Assembly (NCBI GenBank): GCA_049692655.1
Contig: JBAVPB010000013.1
Coordinates: forward strand, 1 to 29,585
Length of the DNA stretch: 29,585 bases
From: Chthoniobacteraceae bacterium
GTDB lineage: Bacteria; Verrucomicrobiota; Verrucomicrobiia; Chthoniobacterales; Chthoniobacteraceae
Direction of reading: 5' to 3'
Part shown: in pieces, positions 1 to 21,085 of the stretch
Numbering within the stretch: position 1 is the stretch's first letter
Layout: every line of letters starts with the position of its first letter
The notes under the pieces: generated by a model
What the model saw: the letters and a program-made list of their open reading frames with translations, nothing else
The model's database searches: none
What the model was told of the DNA's origin: nothing
Program-made: the position numbers and the translations under genes

Positions 1-9
1 CCCATGGAG

Positions 10-31
10 GGACATGCTCTGTCATGTCCCA
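10..31 (-). terminator. Hairpin element (34-bp dispersed repeat) downstream of the acyltransferase gene; candidate terminator/REP-like
   Basis: GGGACATG-ctctgt-CATGTCCC, an 8-bp stem with a 6-nt loop. The extended 34-bp unit TGGAGGGACATGCTCTGTCATGTCCCAGTCCCAA recurs, reverse-complemented, at 18476-18509. Confidence 0.45.
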
Positions 32-117
32 GTCCCAAAAACTCTTCACTTAACCCCAGCCGTCAGCTTTCCACGAACCCTCTTTTCGGAAATTTCTTTC
101 CGCAGATGCTCTGGATT

Positions 118-1344: not shown

Positions 1345-2528
1345 CACGGTTTTTTGGCCCGTTCCGCCAGCATTTCCTCGAGGATCTCCGCGGTGCGCGC
1401 GGTTGCGGTATGCGGCAGTTTTGCACCCAGTTTTTCACGGATCTCCGCGTAATCTTCCGCCAGGCGCGTGCGCTTTGCGTCGTCGCCGAGAAGTGTCCGC
1501 ACTTCCTCCGCGATAGCGGCAGGCTTGCATTGCGGCCCGAGCAATTCCCGGATCGCCATGCGCTGGAGGATCACATTCGGCATGGCGATGAAGGGGATGT
1601 TCTTTTTCCACATCCATAAAAACAGCCACTCGATCCTTCCCACCCAGGGAAAATCATAGACCATCACTTGCGGCGCTCCGATCACCGCAGCCTCCAGGGT
1701 CGCCGTGCCGCTTTTTACAATGGCCGCATCACTGGCAAAGAGAACATCCGCCGCACGATCGCTTACGATCTTCACCCACTCGGGAAAATAGCTCCTCACG
1801 TTTTCCACGCGATTGTGCGAGGCGGCGACTATGAAGTGCATGCCCCCGTTTTTGCGCAAAATCTCCGCGGTTTCCGCAAGGCGCGGGCTGAGACAGGTGA
1901 TCTCCGCCATGCGCGACCCGGGCAGGAGCGCGACGAGTTTCTCCCCCGCGCCGATTCCAAACTCACGCCGCAGCGCCTCGCGCTTTTCCTCATCGTAACG
2001 GATTTCCAGCATCGGGTGGCCGACCCATTCCGCGTTGCTTCCGGCGGCGATCAGGCGTTGTGCTGACCACTCGAACGGCGTGGCAATGCGGGCCGCAACC
2101 TGTGCGATCCCCAAGCCTCCGCGACCGCGGCGGCGCCACGAACCGGGCGGAAAATAGAACAATCCCGGCACACCCGCATTTTTCAGGAATTCCAGCGCGG
2201 GACAATTGAACGCCCCCCAGTCGCATAAAACCGCCGCGTCGATTTTGTTTTCGCGCACAAATGCCTTGAGCGAGTACCAGAGTTTTCTGGCCCGTGGATA
2301 CATACGGATCGACGAATAAATCCCCACACCGCTGAGATCGGTCGTATCTCCGATCCACTTCCCGCCGGGCGATTTTTCAGCTTCACCTCCAAGATGCTCT
2401 CCCCCGACCGCATAAAGCGTCCAATCCGGATGCCGCTCGCGCAAGGTTTTCGCGAGCCGGGCGGTATTGATGTCGCCGGAAACGTCGCCTGCCAGCAAAA
2501 GAATGGAAGTTTTTGGAGTCGTCGTCAC
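1344..2528 (-). CDS. lpxB: Lipid-A-disaccharide synthase (glycosyltransferase family 19)
   Basis: 394 aa. N-terminus ILLLAGDVSGD matches the LpxB AGExSGD motif. LLPGSR...E and SDAAIVKSGTATLEAA blocks match E. coli LpxB. The start is a GTG at 2528. Confidence 0.88.
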   Translation of the reverse strand: MTTTPKTSILLLAGDVSGDINTARLAKTLRERHPDWTLYAVGGEHLGGEAEKSPGGKWIGDTTDLSGVGIYSSIRMYPRARKLWYSLKAFVRENKIDAAVLCDWGAFNCPALEFLKNAGVPGLFYFPPGSWRRRGRGGLGIAQVAARIATPFEWSAQRLIAAGSNAEWVGHPMLEIRYDEEKREALRREFGIGAGEKLVALLPGSRMAEITCLSPRLAETAEILRKNGGMHFIVAASHNRVENVRSYFPEWVKIVSDRAADVLFASDAAIVKSGTATLEAAVIGAPQVMVYDFPWVGRIEWLFLWMWKKNIPFIAMPNVILQRMAIRELLGPQCKPAAIAEEVRTLLGDDAKRTRLAEDYAEIREKLGAKLPHTATARTAEILEEMLAERAKKP

Positions 2529-2684
2529 AATAGGAAAAGTTTCTCGGGTGCTTTGGTCGGATTCAGTCAGATAAGTTCAACGCTTGTCCGTTGCAGTCTT
2601 TGCCATCGTCGAATGCCTTGCAACCTGCATTTTTCCCCTGCCACACCTTGCCTTGACACGCCTCGCTCTTCTTCAAGACAATCC

Positions 2685-2723
2685 GGGCTAATCAACCGTT
2701 GCCAACCCTTGCCAACCGTCAGC
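2685..2723 (-). repeat. Dispersed intergenic repeat, copy A (inverted relative to copies B and C)
   Basis: The reverse complement reads GCTGACGGTTGGCAAGGGTTGGCAACGGTTGATTAGCCC. It is near-identical to 11708..11752 and shares a 30-bp core with 23998..24027. It sits in the divergent lpxB/MBOAT promoter region. Confidence 0.7.
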
Positions 2724-2747
2724 TTTCCCACATCGTTACATCAGTAA

Positions 2748-4151
2748 ATGCTTTTTCAATCGTTCGGTTTTTTCGTTTTTTTCTGGATCGCATTTGCCGT
2801 CTATTGGAAGTTGCGCGCCCACGATCACCGCATGGGCTGGCTGCTCGCGGCGAGCATCCTTTTCTACGCACTTTGGAATCCATGGCTGATCACGCTCATC
2901 ATCTTCACAGCCGGCCTCGATTACATTTGCGCGCTGCGGATCGAGTCGGCGGCAAATGACCGCTCAAAACGCGCATGGCTGCTCCTGAGCCTTGTCGCGA
3001 GCCTGTCGCTGCTTTGCTTTTTTAAATACGCGCAGTTTTTCGTAGAGTCCGCCTTCGGCCTCCTCGGGATATTCGGCCTCCACGCCTCCCCTCCCATGTG
3101 GCACATGGTCCTCCCGCTCGGCATTTCCTTCTACACGTTCGAGACAATCAGTTACGTCGTCGATGTCTATCGCGGCCGGCTGAAGGCCGAGCGGAATGTG
3201 CTCCACTACGCGCTCTACATCATGTTTTTCCCGCACCTCATCGCGGGCCCCATCGTCCGGCCGGAACAATTCCTGCCGCAAATCCGTCGCCCGAAACACT
3301 TCGACTGGCTGCGGCTGCAGCTCGGCGCGCAACTTTTCATGCGCGGTCTTTTTAAAAAGACCGTGCTTTCCGACCGGCTTGCCTCCATGGCGGACCCCAT
3401 CTTCCATGCCCCTGGCGATTTCTCCACGGCGACCCTGTGGCTGGCAGCCATCGGCTACGCCGGGCAAATCTATTGCGACTTCTCCGGCTATACCGACATG
3501 GCGATCGGCGCGGCCCACGCCTTCGGCTTCAAGCTCCCGCAGAATTTCAACCGCCCGTACCTCGCCGACAGCGTCGGTGAATTCTGGCGGCGCTGGCACA
3601 TCACGCTATCCACATGGCTGCGCGATTATTTGTACATCCCCAGCGGGGGAAGCCGCGGCGGAACCTGGCGCACCTATCGCAATCTCATCCTCACCATGGG
3701 CATCGCCGGGTTGTGGCATGGGCCGGGCTGGAATTTCATCATCTTCGGCCTCATGCATGGCGTCGCGATGGCCATCGAGCGCATGCTGCCACAATGGGAA
3801 TGGGCCCGCCTCGCCCCGGTGCGCGTCGTGCGGATCGTGGCGACCTTTTTGTTCTGGTCGATCAGCCTGGTGTTTTTCCGCGCCAAAACCCTGGCCGCCG
3901 CGCTCACCACGCTCACCCGCATGTTCCACCCCGCAGTGGGGCAGAGCCCGGCACAGGGCGTCATCGCCATGGCGCTCGTCATCCTCGGCTGCGTCTTCCT
4001 CGGGCAGATCGTTGGTGGGCTCACCCTATGGCGGCGCATCGAGACGCGCGTGCCGGCACCCATCATCGGCTTCGCCCTCTGCTGCCTTTTTCTTTTGATC
4101 CAGTTGCTAAACCCGGAATATGACAGCCCGTTCATTTACTTCCAATTCTGA
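2748..4151 (+). CDS. MBOAT-family membrane-bound O-acyltransferase (AlgI/PatA/DltB-like)
   Basis: 467 aa polytopic membrane protein. It carries the MBOAT hallmark blocks GPIVRPEQFLPQ and WRRWHITLSTWLRDYLYIPSGGSR, with the conserved His in HGPGWNF. Confidence 0.88.
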   Translation: MLFQSFGFFVFFWIAFAVYWKLRAHDHRMGWLLAASILFYALWNPWLITLIIFTAGLDYICALRIESAANDRSKRAWLLLSLVASLSLLCFFKYAQFFVESAFGLLGIFGLHASPPMWHMVLPLGISFYTFETISYVVDVYRGRLKAERNVLHYALYIMFFPHLIAGPIVRPEQFLPQIRRPKHFDWLRLQLGAQLFMRGLFKKTVLSDRLASMADPIFHAPGDFSTATLWLAAIGYAGQIYCDFSGYTDMAIGAAHAFGFKLPQNFNRPYLADSVGEFWRRWHITLSTWLRDYLYIPSGGSRGGTWRTYRNLILTMGIAGLWHGPGWNFIIFGLMHGVAMAIERMLPQWEWARLAPVRVVRIVATFLFWSISLVFFRAKTLAAALTTLTRMFHPAVGQSPAQGVIAMALVILGCVFLGQIVGGLTLWRRIETRVPAPIIGFALCCLFLLIQLLNPEYDSPFIYFQF

Positions 4152-4191
4152 ACCGCCACGCCACCGCTCACACCGGCGCGCCAGGGTAGCC

Positions 4192-5211
4192 ATGCTCTGG
4201 TTCGGAGCGGCGTTGCTTCTTTCGCCGGTCCCCGGCGCCTTGCTCGTGGACCACTGCCCGCTTCGCTTCCGTTTTCCCGAGGCCGCCGCGCTGCAGGAGG
4301 CGTGGAACAAAACCGACCCGCGGTCGAGCATCCTGTTCCTCGGCAGTTCGCGCATGGAATCCTTCATGCAAAGCAGCGCGTTCACTGCCGATGCGCAACA
4401 GGCCACGGGCGACCACTCCCTCATCGCGTTCAATGCCTCCGTCCCCGCTGCCGATCCCGTGACCTCCGACTTTATCACTTCCAGACTGCTTGCGGATGGC
4501 CGGGTGCCTCAGCTCGCCATCGTGGAAATCAGCCCCGATTTCCTGGCGCGCAAAAATCCGTTTTTCTCCGTCACCATCAAGCGTCAATTCACTGCCGGTG
4601 ACCTGCCGCGCTACCTGCGCGACATCTTTTATTCCGGCCCGAAAGACGTCTCCAGCCTTGCCTCCTCTGTGCTCACGCCTTTTTACCGCCATCGCACGAT
4701 CCTGCTCGACTGGTTCCTGTCCCATTTCACTTCGGCACCAGTGACTGCGCCGGGCATCGTCACCGTTCCGGCGGAAATCGCGCCTCCTTCAGCAACGTCT
4801 TCGACACCCTCCCCTGCGGAGATCGCAAAGAATACCGCGTGGGAAGAGGCGCTAAAGAACGCCGCACAAATCTACGCGCACTCCTTGCGTGATTATAAGC
4901 TCGAAGGCGCCACCTCCGCCGCGCTGGAACACACTGTCGCCATGCTCCATGCACACGGTTGCAAAGTCGTGCTCGTGGAACTCCCGCTCACCGCCCCTTT
5001 CCGCGCAATGCAACCCCCGCAAATCGAGGCTCAATTTCCTCCTTACCTCCGGCATTTGCAGGAGAAATACGGCTGTTCCTATGTGAATCTGTGGGACCGC
5101 GTTCCCGACACCCATTTCATGGACGGCCACCACGGCGACATGGAAGGGAGCCGCGAGTTCAGCGAAATACTCGCGCGGGAAGTCGTTGCACCGGTTTGGG
5201 TAAAGCAGTGA
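4192..5211 (+). CDS. SGNH-like periplasmic partner of the MBOAT (AlgJ/AlgX/PatB-like O-acetyltransferase), putative
   Basis: The ORF track starts at 4120, but a signal-peptide-like MLWFGAALLLSPVPGALL begins at the ATG at 4192. An SGNH block-I-like LFLGSSRMESF and a block-V-like DGHHGD are present. It lies immediately downstream of the MBOAT gene, in the same orientation. Confidence 0.55.
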   Translation: MLWFGAALLLSPVPGALLVDHCPLRFRFPEAAALQEAWNKTDPRSSILFLGSSRMESFMQSSAFTADAQQATGDHSLIAFNASVPAADPVTSDFITSRLLADGRVPQLAIVEISPDFLARKNPFFSVTIKRQFTAGDLPRYLRDIFYSGPKDVSSLASSVLTPFYRHRTILLDWFLSHFTSAPVTAPGIVTVPAEIAPPSATSSTPSPAEIAKNTAWEEALKNAAQIYAHSLRDYKLEGATSAALEHTVAMLHAHGCKVVLVELPLTAPFRAMQPPQIEAQFPPYLRHLQEKYGCSYVNLWDRVPDTHFMDGHHGDMEGSREFSEILAREVVAPVWVKQ

Positions 5212-5246
5212 AAATTCCCGGCCGTTTTTGAACGGTGAAGCTTTCC

Positions 5247-5867
5247 CTACCCCCGGTTGTCCTGCAGCCCATCCGCAGTCGCCGGTTGCTTCCCACGGGA
5301 AGCGGAAGAGCCTTCGTTTTCCACGAATGCGCCTGCAAAATCCATTACGCACATGGTGCCATAGCGGGCATGCGGGCCACAAGCCACGCCTGCCACGCCG
5401 AAATCCCGGCAGAAGATATTCCGGCGATGCCCGCGGTTTCTCACGTTTGCATCCACGATCAGGCTCACCACGATCTGCCTCGGGCTTACCATGCCGTAGG
5501 AGATATTCTCGCCAGCCGTCCCGAGCCATTTGCCAAAGCGTTTCATGCGATCCCATGGAGAGCTGTGATCATCCCCATAGTGACCCGTCGCACCTGTCCC
5601 GCCCTGGCCGAGCACCTGCGCCATAGCGCCCATCGCCAGCCCGTTTGAAAACGTCAGCGGCGGCAGCGGCTTTGTGTGGTTCAAAAAATTAATGGCCTCA
5701 CCGTAAGAGGACCCGCCTCCTTGTGATGCAATGATCTGCGCGTATTCCTGGGGGTGCATGCGCGCCATGTTCACCTCCCGCAGCACCGCCTCAGCCTGCC
5801 CATCCGCACGGCACACCCCACCCGCGCAGAGCACGAGGAGAAATAGCAGCGTAAGGAACGTTTTCAC
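5247..5867 (-). CDS. Secreted CAP/SCP/PR-1-like (YkwD-type) domain protein
   Basis: 206 aa. N-terminal signal peptide MKTFLTLLFLLVLCAGG (GTG start). CAP-like motifs include GHYGDDHSS and a C-terminal GxxACGxH-like region. Confidence 0.65.
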   Translation of the reverse strand: MKTFLTLLFLLVLCAGGVCRADGQAEAVLREVNMARMHPQEYAQIIASQGGGSSYGEAINFLNHTKPLPPLTFSNGLAMGAMAQVLGQGGTGATGHYGDDHSSPWDRMKRFGKWLGTAGENISYGMVSPRQIVVSLIVDANVRNRGHRRNIFCRDFGVAGVACGPHARYGTMCVMDFAGAFVENEGSSASRGKQPATADGLQDNRG

Positions 5868-5959
5868 GCGTGCTATAAAGCAGTTCCGATGCCATCCCGA
5901 AAAGGATAAAACTTACTTCCGGCAATTTAGGGAAAATTACGCGGATTTTCCCGCCCCCA

Positions 5960-6340
5960 TCACCCTGTAGGCTGGAGATTTGCCTCAATGCAATCGATCA
6001 CCTCATCCACATCAACAGGCTTGGCGATGAACGGAAATTCGCCCAGCTTTTCGTGGGCCATCGACCTCTCCCTGGGCACGATCCCCGTCACAAAAATGAT
6101 CGGCGTCCCGTGCAATTGCGGGTGCGAGCGGATGCTCGACGCAATGGTGGTGCCGTCGATATGCGGCATCACGATATCCATCAGGACCAGGTCGGGTTTC
6201 AATTCCATGGTGGTCTTCAGCGCCCTGGTGCCATCGTTTTCCACCGACACTACATACCTGCCGGTCCGCTCCAAAAGCTTCTTCAACAGAGCCGCTGCAT
6301 TCACCTCATCATCCACAATCAGGATTTTTCGCTGCTCCAT
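5960..6340 (-). CDS. Stand-alone response regulator receiver domain (CheY-like)
   Basis: 126 aa. ILIVDDE acidic pocket, phospho-acceptor Asp in LVLMDIVMP, conserved T (IIFVTG) and K (IAKP). No output domain. Confidence 0.85.
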   Translation of the reverse strand: MEQRKILIVDDEVNAAALLKKLLERTGRYVVSVENDGTRALKTTMELKPDLVLMDIVMPHIDGTTIASSIRSHPQLHGTPIIFVTGIVPRERSMAHEKLGEFPFIAKPVDVDEVIDCIEANLQPTG

Positions 6341-6463
6341 ATTTTAGTGATCGTGTTGAAAACAAAATCCGGTCGTAGCAATCGTCAGCCGCGCCTTCCT
6401 GGATGCCTGGGATCGCCGTTACTTTATTGACAGTTTCGCGGCAATTCGTTTCACTGTTATACA

Positions 6464-7219
6464 GTGTCACCGCTCCAAGCAACCCATCCGGTTAAAAAAG
6501 GCGTCGGCTCATTTGGCAAAACCATTTCCGCCACTGACCTCAGCCGGTTGAATCTCCGCTGGTATTACAACTGGACCCCGTTCCCCAAGAAAACCTCCGT
6601 GCTCGACCTGGAGTTTGTCCCCATGTTCTGGTGGGGAGGCGACGTGAACCCGAAAAACCTCGCAGCCGTGTACAACAGCGGCGCAGACAACCTGCTCGGC
6701 TTCAACGAGCCCGACCTCGGCGGCCAGTCAAACATGACGGTCGATGATTGCATCGCCCTCTGGCCCCAGCTCATGGAACTCCCGCAGCGGCTGGGAAGCC
6801 CCGCCCCGGCCAGCCCACCGTGGCTCGAACGGTTCATGGCCGAGGCAAATAAGCGCGACCTCCGGATCGACTTCATCTGCCTCCACAGCTATCCCGATTT
6901 CACAGATCCCCAGGCGATCGAGAATCTCGAGATCATGCTCAGGGGCGTCCACGAAAAATACAAACTCCCCATCTGGATCACGGAATGCGGCACCGCCGAC
7001 GTGAAGGCCTGGTATCTGCCGCAAATCGGCCAGCCCACCGCCGAAAAAGCGCAGCTCTTCCTGAAACGCTATGTCAACCTCATGGCCCGGCTCCCGTTTG
7101 TGGAACGCTATGCATGGTTCGCCGACCAGGTGGACAAGGAATACGCCCACGGCTCCCTCTTCGAGATGGAGAGCAACACGCTGACACCGATGGGCGCAAT
7201 CTACCGCGACGCTCCCTAG
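6464..7219 (+). CDS. Glycoside hydrolase, GH-A clan, glycosyl-hydrolase-catalytic-core type
   Basis: 251 aa. A GFNEPD (acid/base NEP) motif and a WITECG (nucleophile Glu) motif are spaced as in (beta/alpha)8 GH-A enzymes. GTG start; the true start is uncertain. Confidence 0.6.
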   Translation: MSPLQATHPVKKGVGSFGKTISATDLSRLNLRWYYNWTPFPKKTSVLDLEFVPMFWWGGDVNPKNLAAVYNSGADNLLGFNEPDLGGQSNMTVDDCIALWPQLMELPQRLGSPAPASPPWLERFMAEANKRDLRIDFICLHSYPDFTDPQAIENLEIMLRGVHEKYKLPIWITECGTADVKAWYLPQIGQPTAEKAQLFLKRYVNLMARLPFVERYAWFADQVDKEYAHGSLFEMESNTLTPMGAIYRDAP

Positions 7220-7422
7220 AGAGTGTTCTCAGCCCCAACGGGGTGTAATGTGATAGCCTGGGGTGAAGCCCCAGGAATAACGTTCCTGAAATTCTTCCAG
7301 CCCTGTAAGGGCGACACAATCCTCCCTTGAAATAGCACAATACCAACACGCAGCAATCGCTCATCGGAGGATTACTACCCGCAATTTTTCCATCACCGGA
7401 ATTCTGGCCAACCCTGTGCGTG

Positions 7423-7581
7423 GTGAACGATGAAGACTATTCCACGGCCATGAATCTTCTCCGCGATTTCAAGGACCCAGGAAAAGAAGTGACGCCCGAA
7501 TGGACCTGCACACAATGCAAAGAAACGGTCCCCGGCCATTTCGCAGTCTGTTGGAACTGCGGCAACGCACTGAATCAATAA
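7423..7581 (+). CDS. Small zinc-ribbon protein (CxxC...CxxC), putative
   Basis: ORF of about 43-53 aa, not in the track because it is under 60 aa. It ends ...EWTCTQCKETVPGHFAVCWNCGNALNQ* with two CxxC pairs. Alternative starts are GTG 7420/7423 or ATG 7450. Confidence 0.3.
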   Translation: MNDEDYSTAMNLLRDFKDPGKEVTPEWTCTQCKETVPGHFAVCWNCGNALNQ

Positions 7582-7688
7582 TGCCGGTTTGTAGCGGATT
7601 ACACCCGATTCCCGTTTGACGCCGCCCGCCGTGGCGCGATAACCTTTTTGCGTTCGACTCCTCCAATTCATCCCCCGGCCAACCCATC

Positions 7689-8504
7689 ATGTTGAGTATT
7701 TTCGCTCTGTTGCACGCCCTGAAATACGCCGACTTCAGCGGAATTATTGGAATCATACTCGCGTGCGTTTTATTTACGGTCACCTATTCCAAGCTCAAGA
7801 CCGCCCGTTTGGCATTGCGGTTTCAATGGCTTTTGCTTTTTGCCGTTCTATCAATTCCAACGATTTTGTATGTGGCTTATTACTCTCACAAGCTGCCCGA
7901 AACGGAGGCATTCTATGAATTCCGCTCGTGGCGCGGCACGGAGCTTCTCGTTGCATTCACAGGCGGGCTTGCCGGGGTTGTCACAACATTTTTGCACAGG
8001 ACTCTTCTCCCGATTCCACTGGCTTGCCTGGTGGTTGTGGCGTTGATCCCGTTTGCCAAGCCCCTCTTCGGACCGATTCCGGATTCTGATTTCCAGGACC
8101 GATGGAATGGTCCGGTATGCCTGCAAAGCACCGCCTCGACATGTGGCCCGGCGAGTCTCGCAACAATCATGACTCGCCTTGGAATCAAGGTGACGGAACT
8201 GGAAATCGCGCGGGCCGCTTACAGCTACGAGGGAGGTACCGAGGCCTGGTATCTGGCCCGTTATGCGCGAAAACGGGGTCTGAAGGCAGAATTCATTATC
8301 CGAAAAGGCTTTTCACCGGATATTTCCCTGCCGGCAATTGCAGGAGTCGGTCTCGGTTCGGTGGGACATTTCATTCCCATCCTCGCTAGGGAGGGGGACT
8401 TCTATATCACCGGCGATCCAGGCCACGGGGAGTCCCGGTTGACGCGCGAGCAGTTGTTGAAAATATACCGTTTTACAGGCTTCTACATGCCGGTGTCGAA
8501 GTAG
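7689..8504 (+). CDS. Membrane-anchored papain-like cysteine peptidase, C39-like domain
   Basis: 271 aa. About four N-terminal TM helices, then QSTASTCGPASLATIM (C39 Q...CG.A.LA.I catalytic-Cys motif), followed by VGHFIPIL (His) and GDFYITGDP (Asp). There is no ABC-transporter fusion. Confidence 0.7.
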   Translation: MLSIFALLHALKYADFSGIIGIILACVLFTVTYSKLKTARLALRFQWLLLFAVLSIPTILYVAYYSHKLPETEAFYEFRSWRGTELLVAFTGGLAGVVTTFLHRTLLPIPLACLVVVALIPFAKPLFGPIPDSDFQDRWNGPVCLQSTASTCGPASLATIMTRLGIKVTELEIARAAYSYEGGTEAWYLARYARKRGLKAEFIIRKGFSPDISLPAIAGVGLGSVGHFIPILAREGDFYITGDPGHGESRLTREQLLKIYRFTGFYMPVSK

Positions 8505-8556
8505 GTATCCGGCTTGTGAGCAGAAGACTTCCATCACCAAATCGGCGCAATTTACA

Positions 8557-9216
8557 ATGAAGAAGCCCACTCCTCTCTTCACCCGGTTGCTGTTCCTCGT
8601 GGTCGCGGCAATTCTGATACCCCTACTCGCCCTGCTTTGGTTTTTCCCCGCAGGATCACACCCCGCGACCCTCGATGTCACCTTCAAGCTCACCGACCTT
8701 GATTACCACCCTCTCCCGCATGTGCCTGTGCGGGTCGTCTTCGGATCCGATCCGGATTGGCGGAGTCCGGACGCCGGGTATCGGCTCGAGACCGACGACA
8801 ACGGGCAGGCCAGATTCACCGCCCGCGTCATGATCGACAAGCGCCGCCGCAAGGGAAATTTCAGCTTCCTCGGAAATCTGTTCAGCTTGGGAGAACTTAC
8901 GGATCACCTCATGGCCGGGGCCGAACTCGGATACGCAAACCATCACTGGCTGTACAACGTGGATATGGATCACTTCGCCAACGGCGACGTGTTGCAGGAC
9001 GACTTTTCCGTCTATACGCCGGATATCTCGCGCCGGTTCAGCGACAAGGCAAAAGAAACCGAAAACGGGTGGGCAATGAAAGACTTCGGGGGGATGATGC
9101 TCAGCGGCCCCGGTTACGAGCCATGGGATTTCAGGCTGGATGTTGACCCCAATGATTCCACCAAATGGACGCTGCAATTCGCCTTCAAAAAATCCCCGGA
9201 ACCCGTCCAGTGCTGA
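8557..9216 (+). CDS. Secreted/membrane-anchored hypothetical protein
   Basis: 219 aa. N-terminal hydrophobic signal/anchor (LLFLVVAAILIPLLALLWFF). No recognisable catalytic motif. Same orientation as the C39-like gene, 53 bp downstream of it. Confidence 0.55.
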   Translation: MKKPTPLFTRLLFLVVAAILIPLLALLWFFPAGSHPATLDVTFKLTDLDYHPLPHVPVRVVFGSDPDWRSPDAGYRLETDDNGQARFTARVMIDKRRRKGNFSFLGNLFSLGELTDHLMAGAELGYANHHWLYNVDMDHFANGDVLQDDFSVYTPDISRRFSDKAKETENGWAMKDFGGMMLSGPGYEPWDFRLDVDPNDSTKWTLQFAFKKSPEPVQC

Positions 9217-9292
9217 GCCATTTCTAGGAAATGTCATTTCTCTTTCCGGCAGATAGAGGAGCTCAAACAGTAATTTTACAGATATTCTGCGA

Positions 9293-9316
9293 TTGTTAAT
9301 TACAAATAATTAACAA
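9293..9316. repeat. Perfect palindrome TTGTTAATTA-caaa-TAATTAACAA in AT-rich DNA (candidate operator)
   Basis: 10-bp arms with a 4-bp spacer, read directly from the sequence. It lies immediately upstream of a sigma70-like promoter. Confidence 0.6.
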
Positions 9317-9320
9317 TTAC

Positions 9321-9349
9321 TTGACGCAATTCGGCAAATTTGCTAATTT
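9321..9349 (+). promoter_or_regulatory. Sigma70-like promoter: TTGACG, 17-bp spacer, TAATTT
   Basis: -35 TTGACG at 9321-9326 and -10 TAATTT at 9344-9349 with a 17-bp spacer, located in a locally AT-rich stretch. Confidence 0.35.
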
Positions 9350-9538
9350 TATGGGAAATGAAGAAACTGTATTCCATGCCCCTCTCCGGTTCCCAAAACT
9401 CGTTCAAGGCGCGCTGGCGTAAAAACGATGACCTCCCCTCTTTTACTTCCTAACCCGACTCTTGGAGATTCGACTCAGGGAGAAGTCGAGGGGCAAGGGC
9501 GGCAATCCTAAATCTTATTTCCTAAATATTTCCGACTT

Positions 9539-9699
9539 TATCCGGCTCAATCCGGGTGAATCCGACCAAATCCGGGTAAAAAAAACTCCAAAACCATGAA
9601 CTCAAACCTCTTCTATTCAAAATTGGATGTTGGAAGTTGAGCGTTGGACGTTCGCTCCCTTATCCCACTCAATCCCGGTTTATCCCACTTTATCCCACT
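9539..9699. repeat. Three phased short tandem repeat arrays in the ABC-F 5' region
   Basis: (a) 9539-9578: four 10-bp units of (T/A)ATCCG(G/A). (b) 9623-9657: five 7-bp units of TTGGANG. (c) 9660-9699: four 10-bp units, three of them TTATCCCACT and one CAATCCCGGT. Read directly from the sequence. Confidence 0.7.
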
Positions 9700-9784
9700 C
9701 AAAATTACTACGCGATCCTGTTCATCCTGCCCTTTAAAATGAGAAGAGTTGCGGCACACGCCGCGCGCCGTTACAACCACACCA

Positions 9785-11689
9785 ATGTTACAAGCCTCAC
9801 CATCGCTCCTTTCCGCCAATGAAATCGTCCTTGCTTACGGACACCAGCATCTGCTCAACGGCGTGACGCTCGCGGTCGCCCCGCGCGAGAAGGTCGGCCT
9901 GGTCGGGCGCAACGGTTGCGGAAAGACGAGCCTCCTGAAAATCCTCGCGGGCACGAACGAGGCCGATGCCGGTGAAATCTCCCGCCGCCGCGGACTGCGC
10001 ATCGGATATCTCCCGCAGGAATTCGAGCTCGATGGCACAAAAACCGTCCTGGAAAACATCGAGTCCGGCACGGCGGATCTCATGGAGTGGCTGCGCAAAT
10101 ACGAGGAAGGCGAAGGCACCGAACTCGAGCTTGCCGACATGCTCCACGACATCGAAATGGCCGATGGCTGGAACCTCCAGAGCCGCATCAAGTCCAGCAC
10201 GACCGCGCTCGACGCGCCGCCATTGGATGCGCTGGTAGGATCGCTCTCCGGCGGTGAAAAACGCCGCGTCGCTCTCTGCCGCGCCCTGGTCGCCCAGCCC
10301 GATCTGCTGCTGCTCGACGAACCTACGAACCACCTCGACGCGGAATCGATCCGCTGGCTCGAGGATTTCCTCCAGAAATTTGCGGGCGCGGTGATCTTCG
10401 TGACGCACGACCGCTATTTCCTCGATGTCATTGCGACACGCATCATCGAGATTTCCGAGGGGCGCGCGTTTTCGCACCCCGGCAATTACACCGCGTTCCT
10501 TGAGTCGAAGGCAATCCGCCGCCAGATCGCCGAACAATCGGAGCGGAGACGCCAGCGATTTTTGCGCGAGGAACTTGAGTGGGTGCGTGCAGGCGTACGC
10601 GCGCAACGTTCGAAGTCGCGGAATAGGATCGAATCGTTTTACCAGGTGGAGGGCCTCGAGGCGCCGCCCGAGGAGCGCGAGATGGATCTGCTGATTCCGC
10701 CGGCTCCCGAGCTCGGAAACATCGCCGTGAATCTCGTCAATGCCGGGGCAAAAGTCGGCGAGGGCGCGAATGAACGGTGGCTCTTTCGCAATCTCAACTT
10801 TTCGCTGAAGCCGGGACAATGCACGGGCGTCGTCGGCCGCAACGGCGTGGGCAAGACAACGCTGCTGCGCCTCTGCCTCGGCGAACGCGAGCCGGACGAG
10901 GGCACGGTGACGATCGGCAAGCGCGTGAAGTTCAATTACATCGACCAGTCGCGCATGCATCTCGACCTCGACAAGACGGTGCTCTACGAAATCTCAGGCA
11001 ACAACGAGACCGTTTTCTTCGGGGAGACGGCGATGAGCGCGCGGGCTTATCTGCGGCGGTTTCTCTTCACCGACGAGCGGGTGAAGGAGCCGGTGAAGAA
11101 TCTATCCGGCGGCGAACGCGCGCGGCTTCTGCTCGCGAAAGTGCTGCGACGTGGCGGCAATTTGATCGTGCTCGACGAGCCGACGAACGACCTCGATCTC
11201 GCAAGCCTGCGCATGCTGGAGGAAGGGATCGCGGGGTTCGATGGCAGCGTGCTGGTGGTGAGCCATGACCGTTATTTTCTCGACCGGGTCTGCGACCAGA
11301 TCGTGGCGTTTGAGGATGGCGAGATATTCGTACAGCCTGGCAATTACTCCTACTACCTCGAGAAACGGAAGGCGCGCCAGCAGCAGGAAAAAAGCTGGGC
11401 AAATGTGGCGGCGACCCCGGGTAAGGAATCGGAAACCCAGAAGGGAGCCAAGGTGCGCAAGCTGAGTTTCAAGGAGCAGAAGGAACTCGCGTCGATGGAG
11501 GCGACACTGCTCGTGGTGGAGACGCGGGTGGAGGAGTTGAATACTTTGTTAAACAACCCGGAGTTTTTTGTCACGCGGGCGAAGGAGGCGCCGGGGTTGA
11601 TCGCCGAGCTGGAGGAAAAGAAGATCAAGGTCGCGAAACTCTATGCGCGGTGGGAGGAACTGGATGCCATCGACCAGGCTGGCCGGTAA
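9785..11689 (+). CDS. ABC-F family ATPase (two tandem ABC domains, Uup-like with C-terminal coiled coil)
   Basis: Two Walker A motifs (GRNGCGKTS and GRNGVGKTT). Two signature motifs (LSGGEKRR and LSGGERAR). Two Walker B motifs (LLLLDEPTNHLD and LIVLDEPTNDLD). No transmembrane domain. Charged coiled-coil C-terminal extension. The start is chosen at the ATG at 9785 (MLQASPSLLSANEIV), which aligns with ABC-F N-termini. Confidence 0.9.
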   Translation: MLQASPSLLSANEIVLAYGHQHLLNGVTLAVAPREKVGLVGRNGCGKTSLLKILAGTNEADAGEISRRRGLRIGYLPQEFELDGTKTVLENIESGTADLMEWLRKYEEGEGTELELADMLHDIEMADGWNLQSRIKSSTTALDAPPLDALVGSLSGGEKRRVALCRALVAQPDLLLLDEPTNHLDAESIRWLEDFLQKFAGAVIFVTHDRYFLDVIATRIIEISEGRAFSHPGNYTAFLESKAIRRQIAEQSERRRQRFLREELEWVRAGVRAQRSKSRNRIESFYQVEGLEAPPEEREMDLLIPPAPELGNIAVNLVNAGAKVGEGANERWLFRNLNFSLKPGQCTGVVGRNGVGKTTLLRLCLGEREPDEGTVTIGKRVKFNYIDQSRMHLDLDKTVLYEISGNNETVFFGETAMSARAYLRRFLFTDERVKEPVKNLSGGERARLLLAKVLRRGGNLIVLDEPTNDLDLASLRMLEEGIAGFDGSVLVVSHDRYFLDRVCDQIVAFEDGEIFVQPGNYSYYLEKRKARQQQEKSWANVAATPGKESETQKGAKVRKLSFKEQKELASMEATLLVVETRVEELNTLLNNPEFFVTRAKEAPGLIAELEEKKIKVAKLYARWEELDAIDQAGR

Positions 11690-11707
11690 TGGCAGGGATG
11701 CGGGATA

Positions 11708-11752
11708 GCTGACGGTTGGTAAGGGTTGGCAAGGGTTGATTAGCCCTGCCAA
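11708..11752 (+). repeat. Dispersed intergenic repeat, copy B
   Basis: GCTGACGGTTGGTAAGGGTTGGCAAGGGTTGATTAGCCCTGCCAA. It contains the half-sites TTGGCA-N15-TGCCAA. It lies 19 bp after the ABC-F stop and about 90 bp before jetA. Confidence 0.7.
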
Positions 11753-11841
11753 AACGGATGTTTTTAAATGAATGTGTTTGATTGCTTTTGGGCGCGGTTT
11801 TCTTTGTAATTTTGCGGCCCGACCCTGTTTCGTGACACAAA

Positions 11842-13269
11842 ATGAGTGGACTTGGCCATAGTTTATTTTCCGAAATCTCCCCGAAGTTCTTCGGCGTCCT
11901 CACCGGGCCGAATGCGCGGGTGTACCTCGACGTCGTGGACTGGATCGAGCGGGAAATGCCCGCGCGCGGGGATGCCATGGAGCGCGGCGAGATGCTGGAA
12001 ATCATCGACCGCGTGCTGGCTTCCGGCGCGGTGCTGCAGGCCGATGCCGAGGAGGAGGTCCACGAGGCGGAGGCGGACCATCCAGCGAGCCGCATCCTTC
12101 GCCGGCTGATCACGGCGGGCTGGATTTCGGAGGAAAAGCGGTCGGACTACCGGCATATCGTCACCCTGGAGGCCGCTGCGCAGATATTACTGGAAGCCAT
12201 GCGCAAAATCCTGAGCGACAATGTTGCCGCGTTTACCGGAAGCCTCCGGCTTGTGTGCGACCGGCTGGAGTTGTTGCGGTATCCGCATTCCCGCATGGAG
12301 TTGCCCTGGGAGGAATTGAAGAGCTGCCTCACCGAGGTGCGCTCCGGGTTGCGGGAATTGCTGAAAATCCGCAAGCAGGTGGAACGCTACGCCCAGCGCC
12401 AGTTGAAGACCGTCACCATCGCGGAGGCGCTCGACATTATTTACAACGAATTTTCCACGCTCATCACGCAGCAATGCTATCGCGAGTTGATCCACGCCCG
12501 GCTGCCCGAGCGGCTGCGGCAGGCGATGGAGGGACTCACGAATCTGGAGCAGGATGACCTCGCCCTCCAGAAATTACGTGACGATTTCATCCGCACCGCG
12601 CCGGATGCGACCGGCGCCATGCACGAGATCCTGCGGACAATCGAGGAGCTGTCGCTCGCCCTGGGGGATGTCGAGCCGACTGCGGACCGCGTCGATACCA
12701 GCACCGCCGATTTTGCGCGGCGCTCGCGGTCACGCATCCGCTACATCCAGGATGTGGGTTCGGCGCGCAGGCAGCAGATCAAGACGATCTTCGACTACGT
12801 GCGGGAACACCTTGCCCATGTGCGCCTCGGCGACCTGGAGGACAAATTCTCGCTGCCACCCATCAGGCTCGCGGAAGTCGGACTCGTCGGCAACAGCTCG
12901 CTGGCAAAAAGCCGCAAGCCCACGGACGCAGCGGCCCGGCGCCAGGTGGCTTTGCCCTTGAGCGAGGAGGAGAAAGAGGAAAGCCTGCGCGAAATGGAAA
13001 AGAACATGCGCAACGCGCTGCGCCTCGACCGGGCAAACCGGTTCGTGGACCGTCTGGAACTGAAGCGCGGCGAGAGCATCACCTCGGACCAGATGACGAT
13101 CTTCGCGGAGGATGACATCCTTGATGTGATCTCGTGCCTTGTCTTTGCTCCGGCGGGCGGCGCGAATTACCGGCTCTCCACCCTGCGGCAAATGCACCCG
13201 GAGGAACCTGTGGTGATGGATGCCAAGGGGGAATTTGAAATCGAACGGTTCACCGTGGAGAAAAAATGA
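11842..13269 (+). CDS. jetA: Wadjet JetA (MukF-like kleisin subunit, DUF3375-type), putative
   Basis: 475 aa. It is the first gene of a four-gene operon with the Wadjet size pattern (~475/210/1116/407 aa). Its stop overlaps the jetB start (ATGA). The assignment rests on operon architecture and on the recognisable JetC/JetD partners, not on a visible catalytic motif. Confidence 0.7.
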   Translation: MSGLGHSLFSEISPKFFGVLTGPNARVYLDVVDWIEREMPARGDAMERGEMLEIIDRVLASGAVLQADAEEEVHEAEADHPASRILRRLITAGWISEEKRSDYRHIVTLEAAAQILLEAMRKILSDNVAAFTGSLRLVCDRLELLRYPHSRMELPWEELKSCLTEVRSGLRELLKIRKQVERYAQRQLKTVTIAEALDIIYNEFSTLITQQCYRELIHARLPERLRQAMEGLTNLEQDDLALQKLRDDFIRTAPDATGAMHEILRTIEELSLALGDVEPTADRVDTSTADFARRSRSRIRYIQDVGSARRQQIKTIFDYVREHLAHVRLGDLEDKFSLPPIRLAEVGLVGNSSLAKSRKPTDAAARRQVALPLSEEEKEESLREMEKNMRNALRLDRANRFVDRLELKRGESITSDQMTIFAEDDILDVISCLVFAPAGGANYRLSTLRQMHPEEPVVMDAKGEFEIERFTVEKK

Positions 13270-13898
13270 GCGACGAACTTGCATCTTTGCCACTAGCAGC
13301 GGGACTGCTGCCGGAGCTGTCGGATTCCGACCGCGAGAATCTCCAGGCCGCCGTGAGCGAACTTTTCAACCGTCAGGCAATCATCCGCGACCTCCCGGGG
13401 GAGCGCGAACTCTACGAATGGGCGCGGCTGCATTTCAACTGGGTGAAGGAAATCTGCCTGCTGACCGGGTTCGACGTGATCCTGAACGAGGACGAGCAAT
13501 TGATCCATGCGCTGCCGAAGGAGCGCGCCACGCTGCGCAAGCTGCGGGTCGAGTGGACGCTGGTGTTGCTCGGCCTTTGGTACGATTACGACGTGCAACT
13601 CCGCTCGGAAGGCGCACCTGTCATCTTTACGGTCGAGACATTTAACGAGTCGCTCCGGGACAAGCTGGGCGACCGCCAGCCGGCGCTGACTTCGCTCAAG
13701 GAAATCCTGTCGTTCTTCGCCTCGCGGAAACTGGTGCGCATGGAATACGACGACGAGTTTCACCGTTCCCGGATCGAGGTGCTGCCGACCATCCGGTTCG
13801 TATTGCCCTTCGGCGAACTGGAGAAAGTATCGATCATGCTGGATGACCTCATGGCAACCGGCACCGCATCCGAGAGCCCACAGGAGGAATCGCACTGA
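13266..13898 (+). CDS. jetB: Wadjet JetB (MukE-like subunit, DUF4194-type), putative
   Basis: 210 aa acidic protein. ATGA start/stop overlap with jetA, and its stop TGA overlaps the jetC ATG (tgATG). Size and position fit JetB. Confidence 0.7.
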   Translation: MSDELASLPLAAGLLPELSDSDRENLQAAVSELFNRQAIIRDLPGERELYEWARLHFNWVKEICLLTGFDVILNEDEQLIHALPKERATLRKLRVEWTLVLLGLWYDYDVQLRSEGAPVIFTVETFNESLRDKLGDRQPALTSLKEILSFFASRKLVRMEYDDEFHRSRIEVLPTIRFVLPFGELEKVSIMLDDLMATGTASESPQEESH

Positions 13899-16800
13899 TG
13901 GCCAGCCGCTGCATCCGCCTCACGCGCATCCATGCCATCCAGTGGTTTGGGTATTGCGACACATTCGACATCCACGGGAACCTCTTGATTGCGGGCCGCA
14001 CCGGAGCGGGAAAATCGGTGCTCATGGACCTGATCCAGCTCGTGCTGATCGGCGACCAGCGGTCGAAATACAACGCCGCCTCGGACGGGCGCGGACACAC
14101 CTCGGGCCGCGACAAGAAAAGCTACTGCCTGTGCGACACGCAGGAGGACATCAACGGCGTGCCGCAGTATGCGCGGGATGGCGGCATCACCTACATCGCG
14201 CTGGAATTCACCTGGCCCGACGGGGAGCAGGTCGAGACATGGGGCATGCGGGTCGATTATCCCAACACCGAGACCCAGACGCCCGAGGAGGAATTTTTCA
14301 GGATTTCCGAAAGGCTGGAACGCGCGGATTTCGTCACGCCCGAGGGATACGCGCTCGATCTCGACGGCTTCCGCATCCTAGTCCGGAAAAAAGACGGCGA
14401 AACGTTCCGCAATGTCACCGAATACCGGAAGCGCCTCTCCGAGCACCTGAATTTCCACCGCGACACGATCGATTTTCTCATGCCATCGGCGATGTCGTTC
14501 GCGTTCCTGCCGAAGTTCGACGAGTTCTGCCGCCGGTACATCCTGCAGGCCGAGGATATCAAGATCGAGCCGGTGCAGCAGAGTTACCGGAGCTACCTGC
14601 GCATCCGCGAGGAACTGGAAAAACTGCGCGACAAGGCGCAGCGGCTCGAGGAGACGATCGCCGCGAGGAAGGAATGGGAGGACGCGCGCAAGGATGCCGA
14701 CGCGTGCCGGTTCCTCGAGGCGGAGTTCCAACGCGCAGCCGTGCGCGAGGAAGTCGCCACGCTTGAGAAGAAGCTGGCGGAACTCAACCGGCGCCAGGAG
14801 CAGCAGCAGAAGGATTACGAAGAAGTCTGCCAGTCGCTCACCACAAAATCGCAGGACCTGGAATCGCTGAAAAATCTTTTCAGGGACGAGGGCGGGGCGC
14901 TCCTGCTGGAACTCCAGGAGCAGATCCGCACCAAGGCCAGCCAGATCAGGCAACTCGAGCAAATCGGGAAAACCGTGGAGGAAGAGAAGAAGCGCCGCGT
15001 GCGCGTGACTGGCGAGTTTGCAAAGAAAGCGGCTGAGTTTCTTGCGGAACGCAATGCCGGATCGCCCGCGGAGTTGCTGCTGGCCATCAAGTCCCTAGAG
15101 GAGGGCCGCACTGCGGACATGCGCGCCGCACTGCGCCAGACCGCGCAGGCTGTGAAAGCTGTCGTCGCCCGGGTGAGGACGTCGATCCAGAACGAGAGCG
15201 AAAAATTTGCACAGACTAAAGGCGAGCTTGAGGCGCTGCAATCGCAGATCAAGAATCTCGACCGCAACCGGGTGATCCCCTCGCCGCTGCTGGACGAACT
15301 CAACCGGCAACTGCCAAGGAAGGGACGCGAAAATACGGCGCGGCAGCTTCGCGAGCTGTGCGAGGTGACGGACGAGGAATGGCGTCCCGCGCTGGAGCTG
15401 GCTTTCACCCGCAAATTCGCAGTGGTGACGAGCGCGGATGATTACCCGGCGGCGATGCGCATCTACAAGGATTTCCAGCAGGACAGCCAGCATGAGTCGC
15501 TGGTCGATCCGGACCGCGCGCTGTCGAAAAAACCGAAGGTGCTCGAGCATTCGCTCGCGGAAAAAATAGAATCGAAGCATCCGGTCGCCCGCGCTGTGCT
15601 GGATGAGTTGTTCGGTGGCGTCATTTGCGTGACCGCGCTCGACGACCTGCGGAAACATCCCGACGCAATCATGCCCGACGGGTTCCGGCAGCGGGGGATG
15701 TTTGCCGAGCGTCCGCGCCGGTACGACGGGTTTCCATGCATCGGCGCGAAGGGGATCGAGCGGCTCAAGGCGATGCTCGGCGCGAAGGCGGATGAATGCT
15801 CGGCCACGATCCGGCGCATCGAACCGCTGCTGGCGAGGGCGGAACAAATCCAGCGGATGGTTTCCGAGCAAAAGCTGGACTCCGAGGACATCGAGGGGGA
15901 CATCAATTCCGCATCGCGCCTGACGGAACTGGAAAAGGAGCGGGATACGCTGATCGCCCGGAACTCTGCGGCTTCCACGCCGGAGATGGAGAAACGGATC
16001 GAGGCGATCACCGCACTGACCAACCTCGTGAGGTCGCTGGACGAGCGCCGTCTTGAGTTGCACGGGAAGCTTCAATCCACGGAAAAGAACGATATCTCGG
16101 AACGTCTGGACGATGCGAAGCGAAGCCTCGACCGCGCGGAAAAAGCGTACCAGGAGACGATGACGAGCGTGGCAGCCGCGATCGACGTGGCACGGTGCGA
16201 TGCGTTGCGCGCCGAACTGACCGCGCAATACCCCACGGACGAATCGCGTGCGACGAAAGCGGGCCAGCGTTACCGGGAATTTGAAATCCGGCTGCCTGAA
16301 ATCAAAAGCCGTCTGGATTTGCTGAGGAAAGGGCTTGTCGATCAGCATGTGGACCTGCTTGCCGAGCCGGATTTCGATCCTAATACGGAATGGAATCCGT
16401 CTTACCGCAAACTCCTGGAACGCATCAAGGTGGAGGACATGCCGATGAGGCAGAAGCAGGCACTCGACGAGGAGCAGCGGTGGCAGGAATTGTTCAAGAC
16501 CACGGTGGCTGCACGTCTCTCGCAATCGCTGGGGAAGGTGCGGGACACAATCCGCGACCTGAATTTCCAGCTCAAGAATCCGATCGGCGACAGCCTGTAC
16601 CACATCCGCGTGGATGAAAGTCCGTCGCGTGAATTCCAAGAATACCGGCGGGTGCTGGAGGCGTGCTCAGTCACGCAGGAGGGGGACAGCATTTTTGCCT
16701 CGCTGGAAACCGAGGCGCGGGCGGGGGTGGAAAAAGTTTTCAAGGCGCTGGTGGATGAGCCCGAGGGGAAACTGGCGCAGGCGTTTCTCGATTACCGGAG

Positions 16801-18462: not shown

Positions 18463-18487
18463 CATTGTTATGATCGTTGGGACTGGG

Positions 18488-18509
18488 ACATGACAGAGCA
18501 TGTCCCTCC
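18488..18509 (+). terminator. Hairpin element (second copy of the 34-bp repeat) immediately after jetD; candidate operon terminator
   Basis: GGGACATG-acagag-CATGTCCC lies 26 bp after the jetD stop and is followed by a moderately T-rich tail (ctgttgttt). It has the same orientation relative to its upstream gene as copy 1. Confidence 0.45.
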
Positions 18510-19210
18510 ACGCGGCTGTTGTTTGAATGGAAAATCGTGGATTGCAGAGGGCGCAGCGAGGTTCGGAGAATGAGGCGGAGTTAGGTGTTAGATTCTGGTG
18601 CATGTCATGCCTTCTCTACATGAATGTGACGAGCATTCAGCGGGCACAACCCCGGTGGAGTTGGTGTGTTTTTCTTGTGGTTACCCAGGGTAGCCGCGTT
18701 GCGGCAACCCTGAGATGGAGGGCGGAACACCGTTGGTGTTCGGGGACATTTCTGTGTAGATGGTTGGGAGTTACCTATCATATCCGATTATAAACAAATA
18801 TATTTTGGCGACCGAGAAACGTAATAATGAAGATAAGAAGAACGTGCCGTTTCCCTCTGTGTTTTACTTGCGATAGCTTATTTGATGCCACTTTGTTTGT
18901 GGCAGGAGTGTTATTCCGAGTTCGATTGACTTGGAGTTACCGTATTAGTTATTCTAGCCACAGTTCTTTATAGCTTAATGGCCCGGCCTGGCGCCGGGTC
19001 AGCGGGGGAACCAAATATTCCGCAAGTGCGGATCGGGGCTTATGGCGCCTGCGGCGTCAGGAACACTTGGTAGTTCCAGCCCGACAGCTAACCTCGTCAG
19101 CATTACCGGGTATAAGGGCTGTCCTGAAAAGGCTGCACCTGACTCGCAATAAAACAAAAGCTCCAGCTCACGCAGGGGCCGGAGGAAGATAGTTAGGAAG
19201 AGGCAGTGTT

Positions 19211-20518: not shown

Positions 20519-20542
20519 CGGGTACAGCGACTATGTCCTCGA

Positions 20543-20960: not shown

Positions 20961-21085
20961 AACGACGCGATGTTTTTGAAACCGGAGACCGGCAGGCGAA
21001 CCATGTTTAATTTTTGTGGTCGCGTGCGGGGTGGAGCGGAGTTACTTTCGGTCCAGCACAGAAAAATCCAACCGAGGCAAACCCC

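Follow-up and report, generated by a model that had tools for sequence, protein, structure and literature searches.

Dense tandem iterations at helical spacing in front of a bacterial gene raise the question of whether they are read by a protein, act as part of an RNA leader, or are by-products of local duplication. This question was addressed for three short tandem-repeat arrays located upstream of a uup-type ABC-F gene in a complete contig of 29,585 bp (hereinafter referred to as the window), which belongs to an NCBI metagenome-assembled genome labelled Chthoniobacteraceae bacterium, phylum Verrucomicrobiota. The arrays lie in an AT-rich spacer of 568 bp (9217-9784), flanked on the left by a gene for a secreted or membrane protein of unassigned function (8557-9216) and on the right by uup (9785-11689, + strand). 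The arrays are an ordinary case of a known sequence kind, in a phylum rich in such repeats.

The spacer and the gene start were reproduced in an independent assembly of the same strain (L081), in which the spacer was identical and the gene call matched the ATG at 9785. A preliminary description of this locus had regarded the gap of ~560 bp as unusually long, but other gaps in the window measure 748, 567 and 469 bp.

The three arrays and their repeat units

All three tandem arrays named in the preliminary description were found at their places in the DNA, and each was reported by Tandem Repeats Finder (TRF). Array 1 (+ strand) consists of the units TTATCCGGCT, CAATCCGGGT, GAATCCGACC and AAATCCGGGT at 9538-9577, followed by the A-rich unit AAAAAAAACT, and together these form block A (9538-9587), which was supported by TRF, phasing, shuffles and nhmmer. 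TRF placed the array at 9540-9580 with period 10 and 4.1 copies. A degenerate lead-in, AATCCTAAA / ATTTCCTAAA / ATTTCCGAC, was read from the sequence at 9503-9537 (+), with TCC at 9506, 9520 and 9531 (spacing of 14, 11 and then 10) and an ATCC counted at 9505. Array 3 (+ strand), with units TTATCCCACT, CAATCCCGGT, TTATCCCACT and TTATCCCACT at 9660-9699 followed by CAAAATTACT, forms block B (9660-9709) and obtained a TRF score of 52. Beyond it, two more ATCCTG units, 9 bp apart, were read from the sequence at 9715 and 9724 (9715-9729, +), at the expected -35 position. Array 2, between arrays 1 and 3 at 9623-9657 (+), was the weakest by TRF (4.3 copies, 73% match, score 32). Its degenerate heptamers, TTGGATG, TTGGAAG, TTGAGCG, TTGGACG and TTCGCTC, are of the GTTGRNN type and include a small inverted repeat, GAGCG-N9-CGCTC. 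Five TTGGANG units had been proposed here; the array is real, but only three of the five units fit that pattern.

The arrays are far beyond chance. Two runs of at least four phased 4-mers were observed in the spacer, compared with none of 2000 dinucleotide-preserving shuffles of 9217-9784 giving even one, and the three TRF arrays compare with a mean of 0.002 per shuffle. On the + strand, 11 copies of ATCC lie between 9505 and 9727; the - strand has one, seen as TTGGAT at 9623. Eight ATCC cores stand at exact 10-bp spacing, as two runs of four in arrays 1 and 3.

The proposal that one motif recurs in both 10-bp arrays was borne out, since arrays 1 and 3 share the ATCC core and align in register at an offset of 122 bp with 17/20, 28/40 and 35/50 identical positions. 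Blocks A and B also each end with an A-rich unit finishing in ACT. Because of this in-register identity and the matching A-rich units, arrays 1 and 3 are two diverged copies of one ATCC-decamer block of ~50 bp. Separately, the - strand of array 3 (9664-9696) reads GGG-N7-GGG-N7-GGG-N7-GGG, and neither strand of the 29.6-kb window has another canonical G-quadruplex motif; this one lies ~50-85 bp upstream of the inferred uup start.

Tandem repeats across Verrucomicrobiota spacers

To place the arrays in context, TRF was run on the window and ~160 Verrucomicrobiota loci (2.16 Mb), and arrays of period 6-12 with at least 3 copies were retained. A total of 116 arrays was identified (5.4 per 100 kb); period 7 was commonest (58 arrays), followed by 9, 10 and 11. 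No array was found in a block-shuffled copy of the survey DNA, nor in 150 kb of Escherichia coli K-12. Arrays of period 10 or 11 were intergenic in 22 of 24 cases, and spacers with three or four arrays of differing units were also present in L069, L154, L017 and L002. Further, related species hold arrays at orthologous sites with altered copy number and mutated units, the shift being one unit between L036 and L115 and three units between L049 and L053. GTTGRNN heptamers like those of array 2 were common in other Verrucomicrobiota loci, where they are the phylum's commonest heptamer type. Arrays were distributed over co-directional, divergent and convergent spacers as 30, 17 and 6, against 28.6, 13.4 and 11 expected by length, and no significant preference for promoter-bearing spacers was detected across the survey loci.

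Tandem repeats of this kind have been described as long simple-sequence repeats, with units of 5-11 nt, a reported excess of heptamers and polymerase slippage as the proposed origin (Mrazek et al. 2007, as far as summarised in PMC4679880). The copies seen here are beyond chance and non-coding, the class is over-represented lineage-wide, and heptamers are in excess. The three arrays are probably long simple-sequence repeats born of slippage or duplication, with at most a generic effect at the DNA level. Under this reading, a seed motif would have been multiplied by local duplication and slipped-strand expansion, and the copies would subsequently have decayed by point mutation; the arrays would not have been selected as a leader of uup. 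A literature search for tandem repeats or oriC in Verrucomicrobia found nothing specific.

Several observations weigh against an origin by slippage and duplication. The copies are imperfect (70-73% match), so that these are not actively slipping perfect repeats, and the orthologous spacer is kept in no relative, which leaves no copy-number comparison at this locus. Mismatches among the eight decamers spare the ATCC core, with p ~1e-3 by a rough hand estimate, which the common descent of the two blocks makes less reliable. ATCC/GGAT was the top 4-mer among 81 distinct repeat units (16 versus ~6 expected). In addition, a 33-bp stretch of array 1, spacer bases included, matches at 91% identity an array of L002, a genome with no more than 74% identity in Uup. 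Because of the L002 match, the spared core and the ATCC/GGAT excess, pure neutral slippage is insufficient as an explanation; recurrence of unit families in distant genera is likewise not predicted by purely local slippage.

The relatives of the array-1 block were found with nhmmer in L002 and L004 (E 1e-17 to 1e-22), at unrelated loci of two distant genomes. The copy in L002 is a five-unit array upstream of a Ser/Thr kinase gene, and in both loci the similarity runs into a non-repeat flank, AAAACTC..CCATGA. A single dispersed array-1 unit, TGAATCCGACCAAA, lies in the divergent lpxB/MBOAT spacer of the window (2552-2572, - strand), where it forms an inverted-repeat pair and gave a weak nhmmer match. 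Plain slippage accounts neither for this unit nor for the likeness of array 2 to heptamer arrays of many loci; selection on the motif, as in a docking array, or a dispersed element family might account for such points. Blocks A and B might therefore be remnants of a small dispersed repeat family, mobile or like repetitive extragenic palindromes (REP), whose ~50-60-bp element is also present in L002 and L004. The extension of the L002 and L004 matches into non-repeat flank is consistent with this, as are the two copies 122 bp apart at this locus, other dispersed elements in the window (a 50-nt GGTTGG(Y)AAG element in three copies and a 34-nt palindromic element in two), and hairpin-type repeat elements inside coding regions in L033/L035 and L060. 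We regard this explanation as quite improbable: terminal inverted repeats, target-site duplications or a transposase were not seen, the block occurs in only three genomes among ~150 loci, and plasmids, phages and viral contigs gave no match, on which ground a mobile-element origin was rejected.

A broader proposal is that the ATCC-decamer block, with its two copies at this locus, those of L002 and L004 and the single unit at 2552-2572, belongs to an undescribed family of Verrucomicrobiota cis-elements. These would be cassettes that a dedicated mechanism disperses or preserves and that a GGAT/ATCC-specific protein recognises, rather than by-products of slippage. Such a family would take in the GTTGRNN heptamers, ATCCGTG nonamers and GTCAAAnnTA decamers, of which some form long hairpins or even stand in frame within genes. 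We consider it distinctly unlikely. If the arrays are read by a protein or by RNA and are not slippage debris, an extensive level of regulation or genome dynamics would await exploration in a phylum whose molecular genetics has hardly begun. In any case, Verrucomicrobiota spacers are unusually rich in tandem arrays of 7, 9, 10 and 11 bp, the same unit families turn up in different genera, and GGAT/ATCC cores are present in excess; this phylum-wide pattern is the part worth pursuing.

For arrays 2 and 3, a homology to the spacer upstream of a parA-like gene in L101 was considered and rejected, as its score of 55 was not significant against shuffles (30 +/- 5, maximum 56). The nearest copy of array 2 is in that locus (129-154, 88% over 26 nt, E 0.1), and an nhmmer search built on the match added only other heptamer arrays.

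Other repeat structures were recorded in the same loci. Pairs of inverted tandem arrays, with 9-bp ATCCGTGnn or 7-bp GTTGGAT/GGTTGAG units, form long imperfect hairpins in L019 (18564-18642), L113 (14575-14674), L125 (5340-5420), L115 (3215-3309), L060 (3612-3763), L033 (277-359) and L035 (175-257). Those of L019, L113 and L125 share the ends TTGA(C/G)CCAC(G/A)GAT...GGTT(T)GAA. The L033/L035 hairpin lies in frame within an open reading frame (ORF) resembling leucyl-tRNA synthetase, and that of L060 within a tyrosine-recombinase-like gene. A dispersed spacer element of ~50 nt, GATGCGGGATAGCTGACGGTTGGTAAGGGTTGGCAAGGGTTGATTAGCCC, was present in the window at 2685-2734 (-), 11697-11746 (+) and 23997-24028 (+), in L082 at 7278-7326 and in L174 at 384-408. 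The core of this element consists of the 10-bp unit GGTTGG(Y)AAG in tandem and resembles the two-tetrad G-quadruplex motif of the thrombin aptamer. Start codons follow closely after two of the copies, and a third stands just past the uup stop codon. Moreover, a 34-nt sequence at 5-38 and 18477-18510 forms a perfect inverted pair 18.4 kb apart and is itself a hairpin, GGGACATG-CTCTGT-CATGTCCC. Its copies, REP-like in appearance, stand just beyond the 3' ends of two genes, jetD and the gene at 118-1347 (-).

The uup promoter and possible readers of the arrays

Conservation of the arrays upstream of orthologous ABC-F genes had been suggested as a check, and none was found. In relatives whose Uup is 97%, 96% and 85% identical, no such arrays precede uup, and the upstream regions of 79 distant uup genes contained no such motif cluster and were unrelated in sequence. 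In the 97% relative (L082, with L169-L173 from that species or a sister one), homology to the window is confined to the stretch from 9734 to ~11756. The shared DNA opens with TTAAAATGAGAAGAGTTGCGGCACACGC (9734-9761, +), identical at 28 of 28 positions to L082 5324-5351, and the homology begins exactly there, marking a conserved uup core promoter and the start of its leader. What precedes the shared block in the 97% relative is different, namely an AraC-family gene and a spacer of 327 bp that contains an 8-bp repeat of its own. In the 85% relative (L174), arrays were absent and the upstream similarity to the window was not significant, so that homology of the array region with that of L174 was rejected. 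Because close relatives share sequence only from 9734, the arrays lie upstream of the conserved promoter, in a fast-turnover, lineage-specific spacer. The preliminary description had held that absence from close relatives with otherwise conserved upstream sequence, together with a lack of protein binding or a transcript feature, would point to neutral slippage repeats; the arrays are indeed absent from close relatives, but the upstream sequence of these relatives is not otherwise conserved. The comparison also locates the start of the real conserved uup promoter, at 9734.

Within the conserved block, TAAAAT at 9735-9740 resembles a -10 box, lies downstream of every array and is likely the -10 box of uup. 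No TTGACA-like hexamer was found 16-18 bp upstream of it in the window, where the two ATCCTG units sit instead; in L082, a TTGTGT hexamer stands at a spacing of 17 bp from the -10 box. The likely transcription start, estimated from the -10 box, would be ~9747. Any activity of the arrays would be at the DNA level, the eight phased cores lying on one helix face at about -48 to -209 from the start. Since the -10 box lacks a -35 partner and the cores face the same side, the arrays might offer several docking sites to a protein that promotes or impedes the work of RNA polymerase at the uup promoter, in the manner of the TTTTGAT heptads of the Vibrio ctxAB promoter.

A specific form of this idea is that the ATCC decamers are sites for a sequence-specific DNA-binding protein, such as a winged-helix response regulator, which would activate or repress the -35-less uup promoter and act at related Verrucomicrobiota arrays as well. 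Winged-helix response regulators bind head-to-tail repeats every 10-11 bp, and the arrangement seen in OmpR/PhoB-type operators, with such repeats beside a promoter, is present here as two runs of four at -48 to -209. The exact 10-bp phasing, the single orientation and the invariant ATCC core all argue for docking. So do the continuation of the cores into the -35 region at 9715 and 9724, the lack of a TTGACA-like hexamer in contrast to the TTGTGT of the 97% relative, the conservation of the array-1 block across genera together with the single unit in another promoter spacer, and the enrichment of ATCC/GGAT among repeat units. ATCCG-type arrays elsewhere also lie ~140-300 nt upstream of the next gene in sense orientation. 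In contrast, neither a cognate regulator in the window nor the same box at functionally linked genes was found. The stand-alone receiver noted earlier was confirmed (5960-6340, -); it is the sole receiver of the window, which encodes no DNA-binding partner. A common function was sought for the genes downstream of similar arrays and none was found, these genes being functionally unrelated (T2SS-F, Ser/Thr kinase, PLD, GT2, MatE). The finding that uup has no such arrays in the relatives of 97%, 96% and 85% identity, and the lack of a significant preference of arrays in general for promoter-bearing spacers, further reduce the support. Thus, of the earlier suggestion of iteron-like regulator-binding sites, the phasing and shared motif are real, while the partner and the functional link are missing, and the docking explanation is rather unlikely. 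An association of the arrays with the upstream 219-aa gene was also considered and rejected, as its homologues are at most 53% identical and occur in other contexts.

The preliminary description had also raised control of the ABC-F gene by a leader or by attenuation. The uup product (634 aa) contains two ABC_tran domains, ABC_tran_Xtn and the C-terminal domain ABC_tran_CTD (PF16326), which is the Uup architecture. It aligns end to end with E. coli Uup at 33% identity (634 versus 635 aa), and relatives of the gene are named uup by JGI. By these features, the gene is a housekeeping Uup-type and not a resistance-type (ARE) ABC-F. Leader attenuators of the kind envisaged belong to ABC-F genes of the ARE type. 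The long 5' region before an ABC-F gene is a point of similarity to that control, from which this locus differs in its Uup-type gene and in having neither a conserved leader peptide nor a terminator/antiterminator fold.

Predicted RNA structure gave no support to a leader either. Folding was no better than in shuffles on both strands, with z-scores of +0.22 for 9500-9745 (+), +1.72 for the - strand, on which the array region was less structured than shuffles, and -0.75 for the putative leader 9356-9790. Searches with Rfam 15 at gathering and permissive thresholds identified no family in the spacer, the sole match being a chance CRISPR-DR50 (E 8.8) on an AT palindrome. A tRNA scan returned nothing in the spacer, and a terminator scan returned no terminator-like site on its + strand. 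Consensus promoter and terminator scans of the window, L002 and L004 gave no support for a small RNA gene. From the array lists, arrays were roughly estimated to occur upstream of ~5% of ABC-F genes against a background of 3.6% for any gene; this near-background frequency argues, as an estimate, against a gene-specific role, and so does the distribution of arrays over spacer types roughly by length. A conserved ABC-F leader was ruled out by the 79 distant loci, the three close relatives and the upstream alignments. The arrays are not a conserved leader or attenuator of uup, and a tempting but wrong annotation, as an ABC-F leader or an iteron site, is thereby removed for this locus.

A different role at the RNA level would not depend on a fold. 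The repeats could be transcribed, from the element TTGACG-17-TAATTT or from the opposite strand, and the unstructured RNA could act as a leader, or as a sponge with many sites, for a protein that binds RNA. The motif on offer would be AUCC in the case of the + strand and GGAU, which resembles the CsrA core, in that of the - strand. The region upstream of the arrays contains, as read from the sequence, a perfect AT-only palindrome, ATTGTTAATTA-CAAA-TAATTAACAAT (9292-9317), followed by TTGACG-17-TAATTT (9321-9349), both on the + strand (9292-9349). Together they form a candidate operator and promoter facing the arrays, which is a promoter-like site of good quality for the sponge; the consensus promoter scan did not call it (TAATTT fails the scan rule). 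Within 220 nt, AUCC (or GGAU) is present 11 times, and the region folds no better than its shuffles do, as expected of an unstructured sponge; in addition, L002 has a hairpin followed by UUUU ~125 nt past its array on the same strand, as read from its sequence. Set against these points, Rfam gave no match, including to CsrB/Rsm-type sponges, the scans of L002 and L004 returned no promoter for either strand, those of the window, L002 and L004 called no terminator between an array and the gene that follows it, GGA motifs are not displayed in hairpin loops, and the element is not conserved with the gene. This explanation is very improbable.

In the same region, an ATG 9 nt past TAATTT opens a 31-codon ORF, MKKLYSMPLSGSQNSFKARWRKNDDLPSFTS, and 9292-9453 may be an operator-controlled, leaderless small gene. 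Small ORFs following the three family copies were compared as read from the sequences, and rejected as a common feature, the peptides being unrelated.

GC skew, downstream genes and known repeat systems

On the + strand of the window, GC skew is negative over 1-10,000 and positive from 10,500 onwards, with values of -0.11 for 1-9784 and +0.14 for 11690-29585; its cumulative minimum falls at 10,539, ~750 bp inside uup. The skew tracks the DNA strand and not the coding strand, and reaches +0.47 at third codon positions on the right. A strand-wise switch of GC skew is a signature of replication origins. The arrays could accordingly be imagined as non-canonical boxes for the initiator DnaA, in a chromosomal oriC next to uup whose unwinding element would be the AT-rich stretch 9260-9350, and the strong switch nearby, the AT-richness of the spacer and the fact that several units start with TTATCC, the first six bases of the DnaA box TTATCCACA, would fit. 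However, the spacer holds 0 matches to TTATCCACA at up to 2 mismatches, compared with 2.7 per kb window-wide, and no dnaA, dnaN or rep gene was found in the window, nor dnaA or dnaN in any fetched locus. The same switch within uup was present in the 97% and 85% relatives (L082, L169, L173, L174), whose flanks differ and which lack the spacer, so these arrays are not its cause. In those relatives, skew is about -0.08 to -0.19 in the 5' 750 nt of uup and +0.07 to +0.15 in the 3' portion. In 158 more distant relatives, the switch was absent (3'-minus-5' difference of 0.016 +/- 0.051). Further, the family copy in L002 shows no skew switch, and that in L004 is too near the locus end to judge. As an explanation of the arrays, DnaA boxes of an oriC are extremely improbable; oriC was rejected on the lack of canonical DnaA boxes, the lack of dnaA/dnaN near uup in any locus and the switch common to relatives without arrays, and an origin of replication at the arrays is unlikely. 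The conserved switch inside uup is a separate lead to the replication origin in this clade.

Elsewhere in the window, 9-mers within one mismatch of TTATCCACA were four-fold more frequent than expected (10 versus 2.5; none of 100 shuffles reached 10). They are located at 1604, 3606, 6003 and 6309 (+), at 16873, 20398, 21267 and 24948 (-), and at 25217 and 27863 (+), so that every site to the left of uup is on the + strand, those to its right are mostly on the - strand, and the array spacer has none.

Directly downstream of uup, a complete Wadjet anti-plasmid system was identified (JetA, JetB/DUF4194, JetC and JetD; 11842-18462). It is followed by a c-di-AMP riboswitch (18962-19117, +; Rfam RF00379, 50.8 bits) upstream of an SPFH/Band-7 gene (19211-20518). 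In L174, a match to window 20759-20954 occurs only ~750 bp past uup, and the Wadjet genes, riboswitch and SPFH gene (~11.8-20.7 kb) therefore look like an insertion in the window lineage. In the 97% relative L169 (8680-10357), a cluster of at least six tRNA genes follows uup instead of the Wadjet system.

Plasmid iterons and DnaA-box arrays of oriC resemble the arrays in their direct repeats of one orientation, helical phasing, adjacent AT-rich DNA and nearby GC-skew switch. They differ in that the units here are 10 bp and not 17-22 bp, that an initiator gene and canonical DnaA boxes are lacking, and that the arrays are absent from close relatives having the skew switch. Also comparable are the TTTTGAT heptads of the Vibrio cholerae ctxAB promoter and the phase-variable promoter repeats of Haemophilus, which reportedly can set promoter strength via recruitment of a regulator (10.1101/2021.05.14.444153, PMC8262952). 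Both are short tandem repeats upstream of a core promoter, as here; the units at this locus are degenerate rather than perfect.

Tandem heptamers are also abundant in intergenic regions of other bacteria, namely the short tandemly repeated repetitive (STRR) heptamers of cyanobacteria and the TAACTGA repeats of Beggiatoaceae, Cyanobacteria and Bacteroidetes, likewise without assigned function (PMC4679880). Some of those come to within a few nucleotides of a start or stop codon, which is also true of several Verrucomicrobiota arrays, whereas the arrays at this locus are 85-245 nt from the start codon. Those systems are dominated by one or a few fixed heptamers, compared with at least 81 distinct units in Verrucomicrobiota. 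The long simple-sequence repeats differ, within the account given in PMC4679880, from the present arrays with their imperfect copies, several units per spacer, and ATCCGnnnnn and GTTGRNN units at non-orthologous sites in distant genera. They nevertheless share with the arrays the head-to-tail units of 7 and 10 nt, the non-coding location, the predominance of heptamers, the restriction to lineages and, as seen at other Verrucomicrobiota loci, the drift of copy number between relatives.

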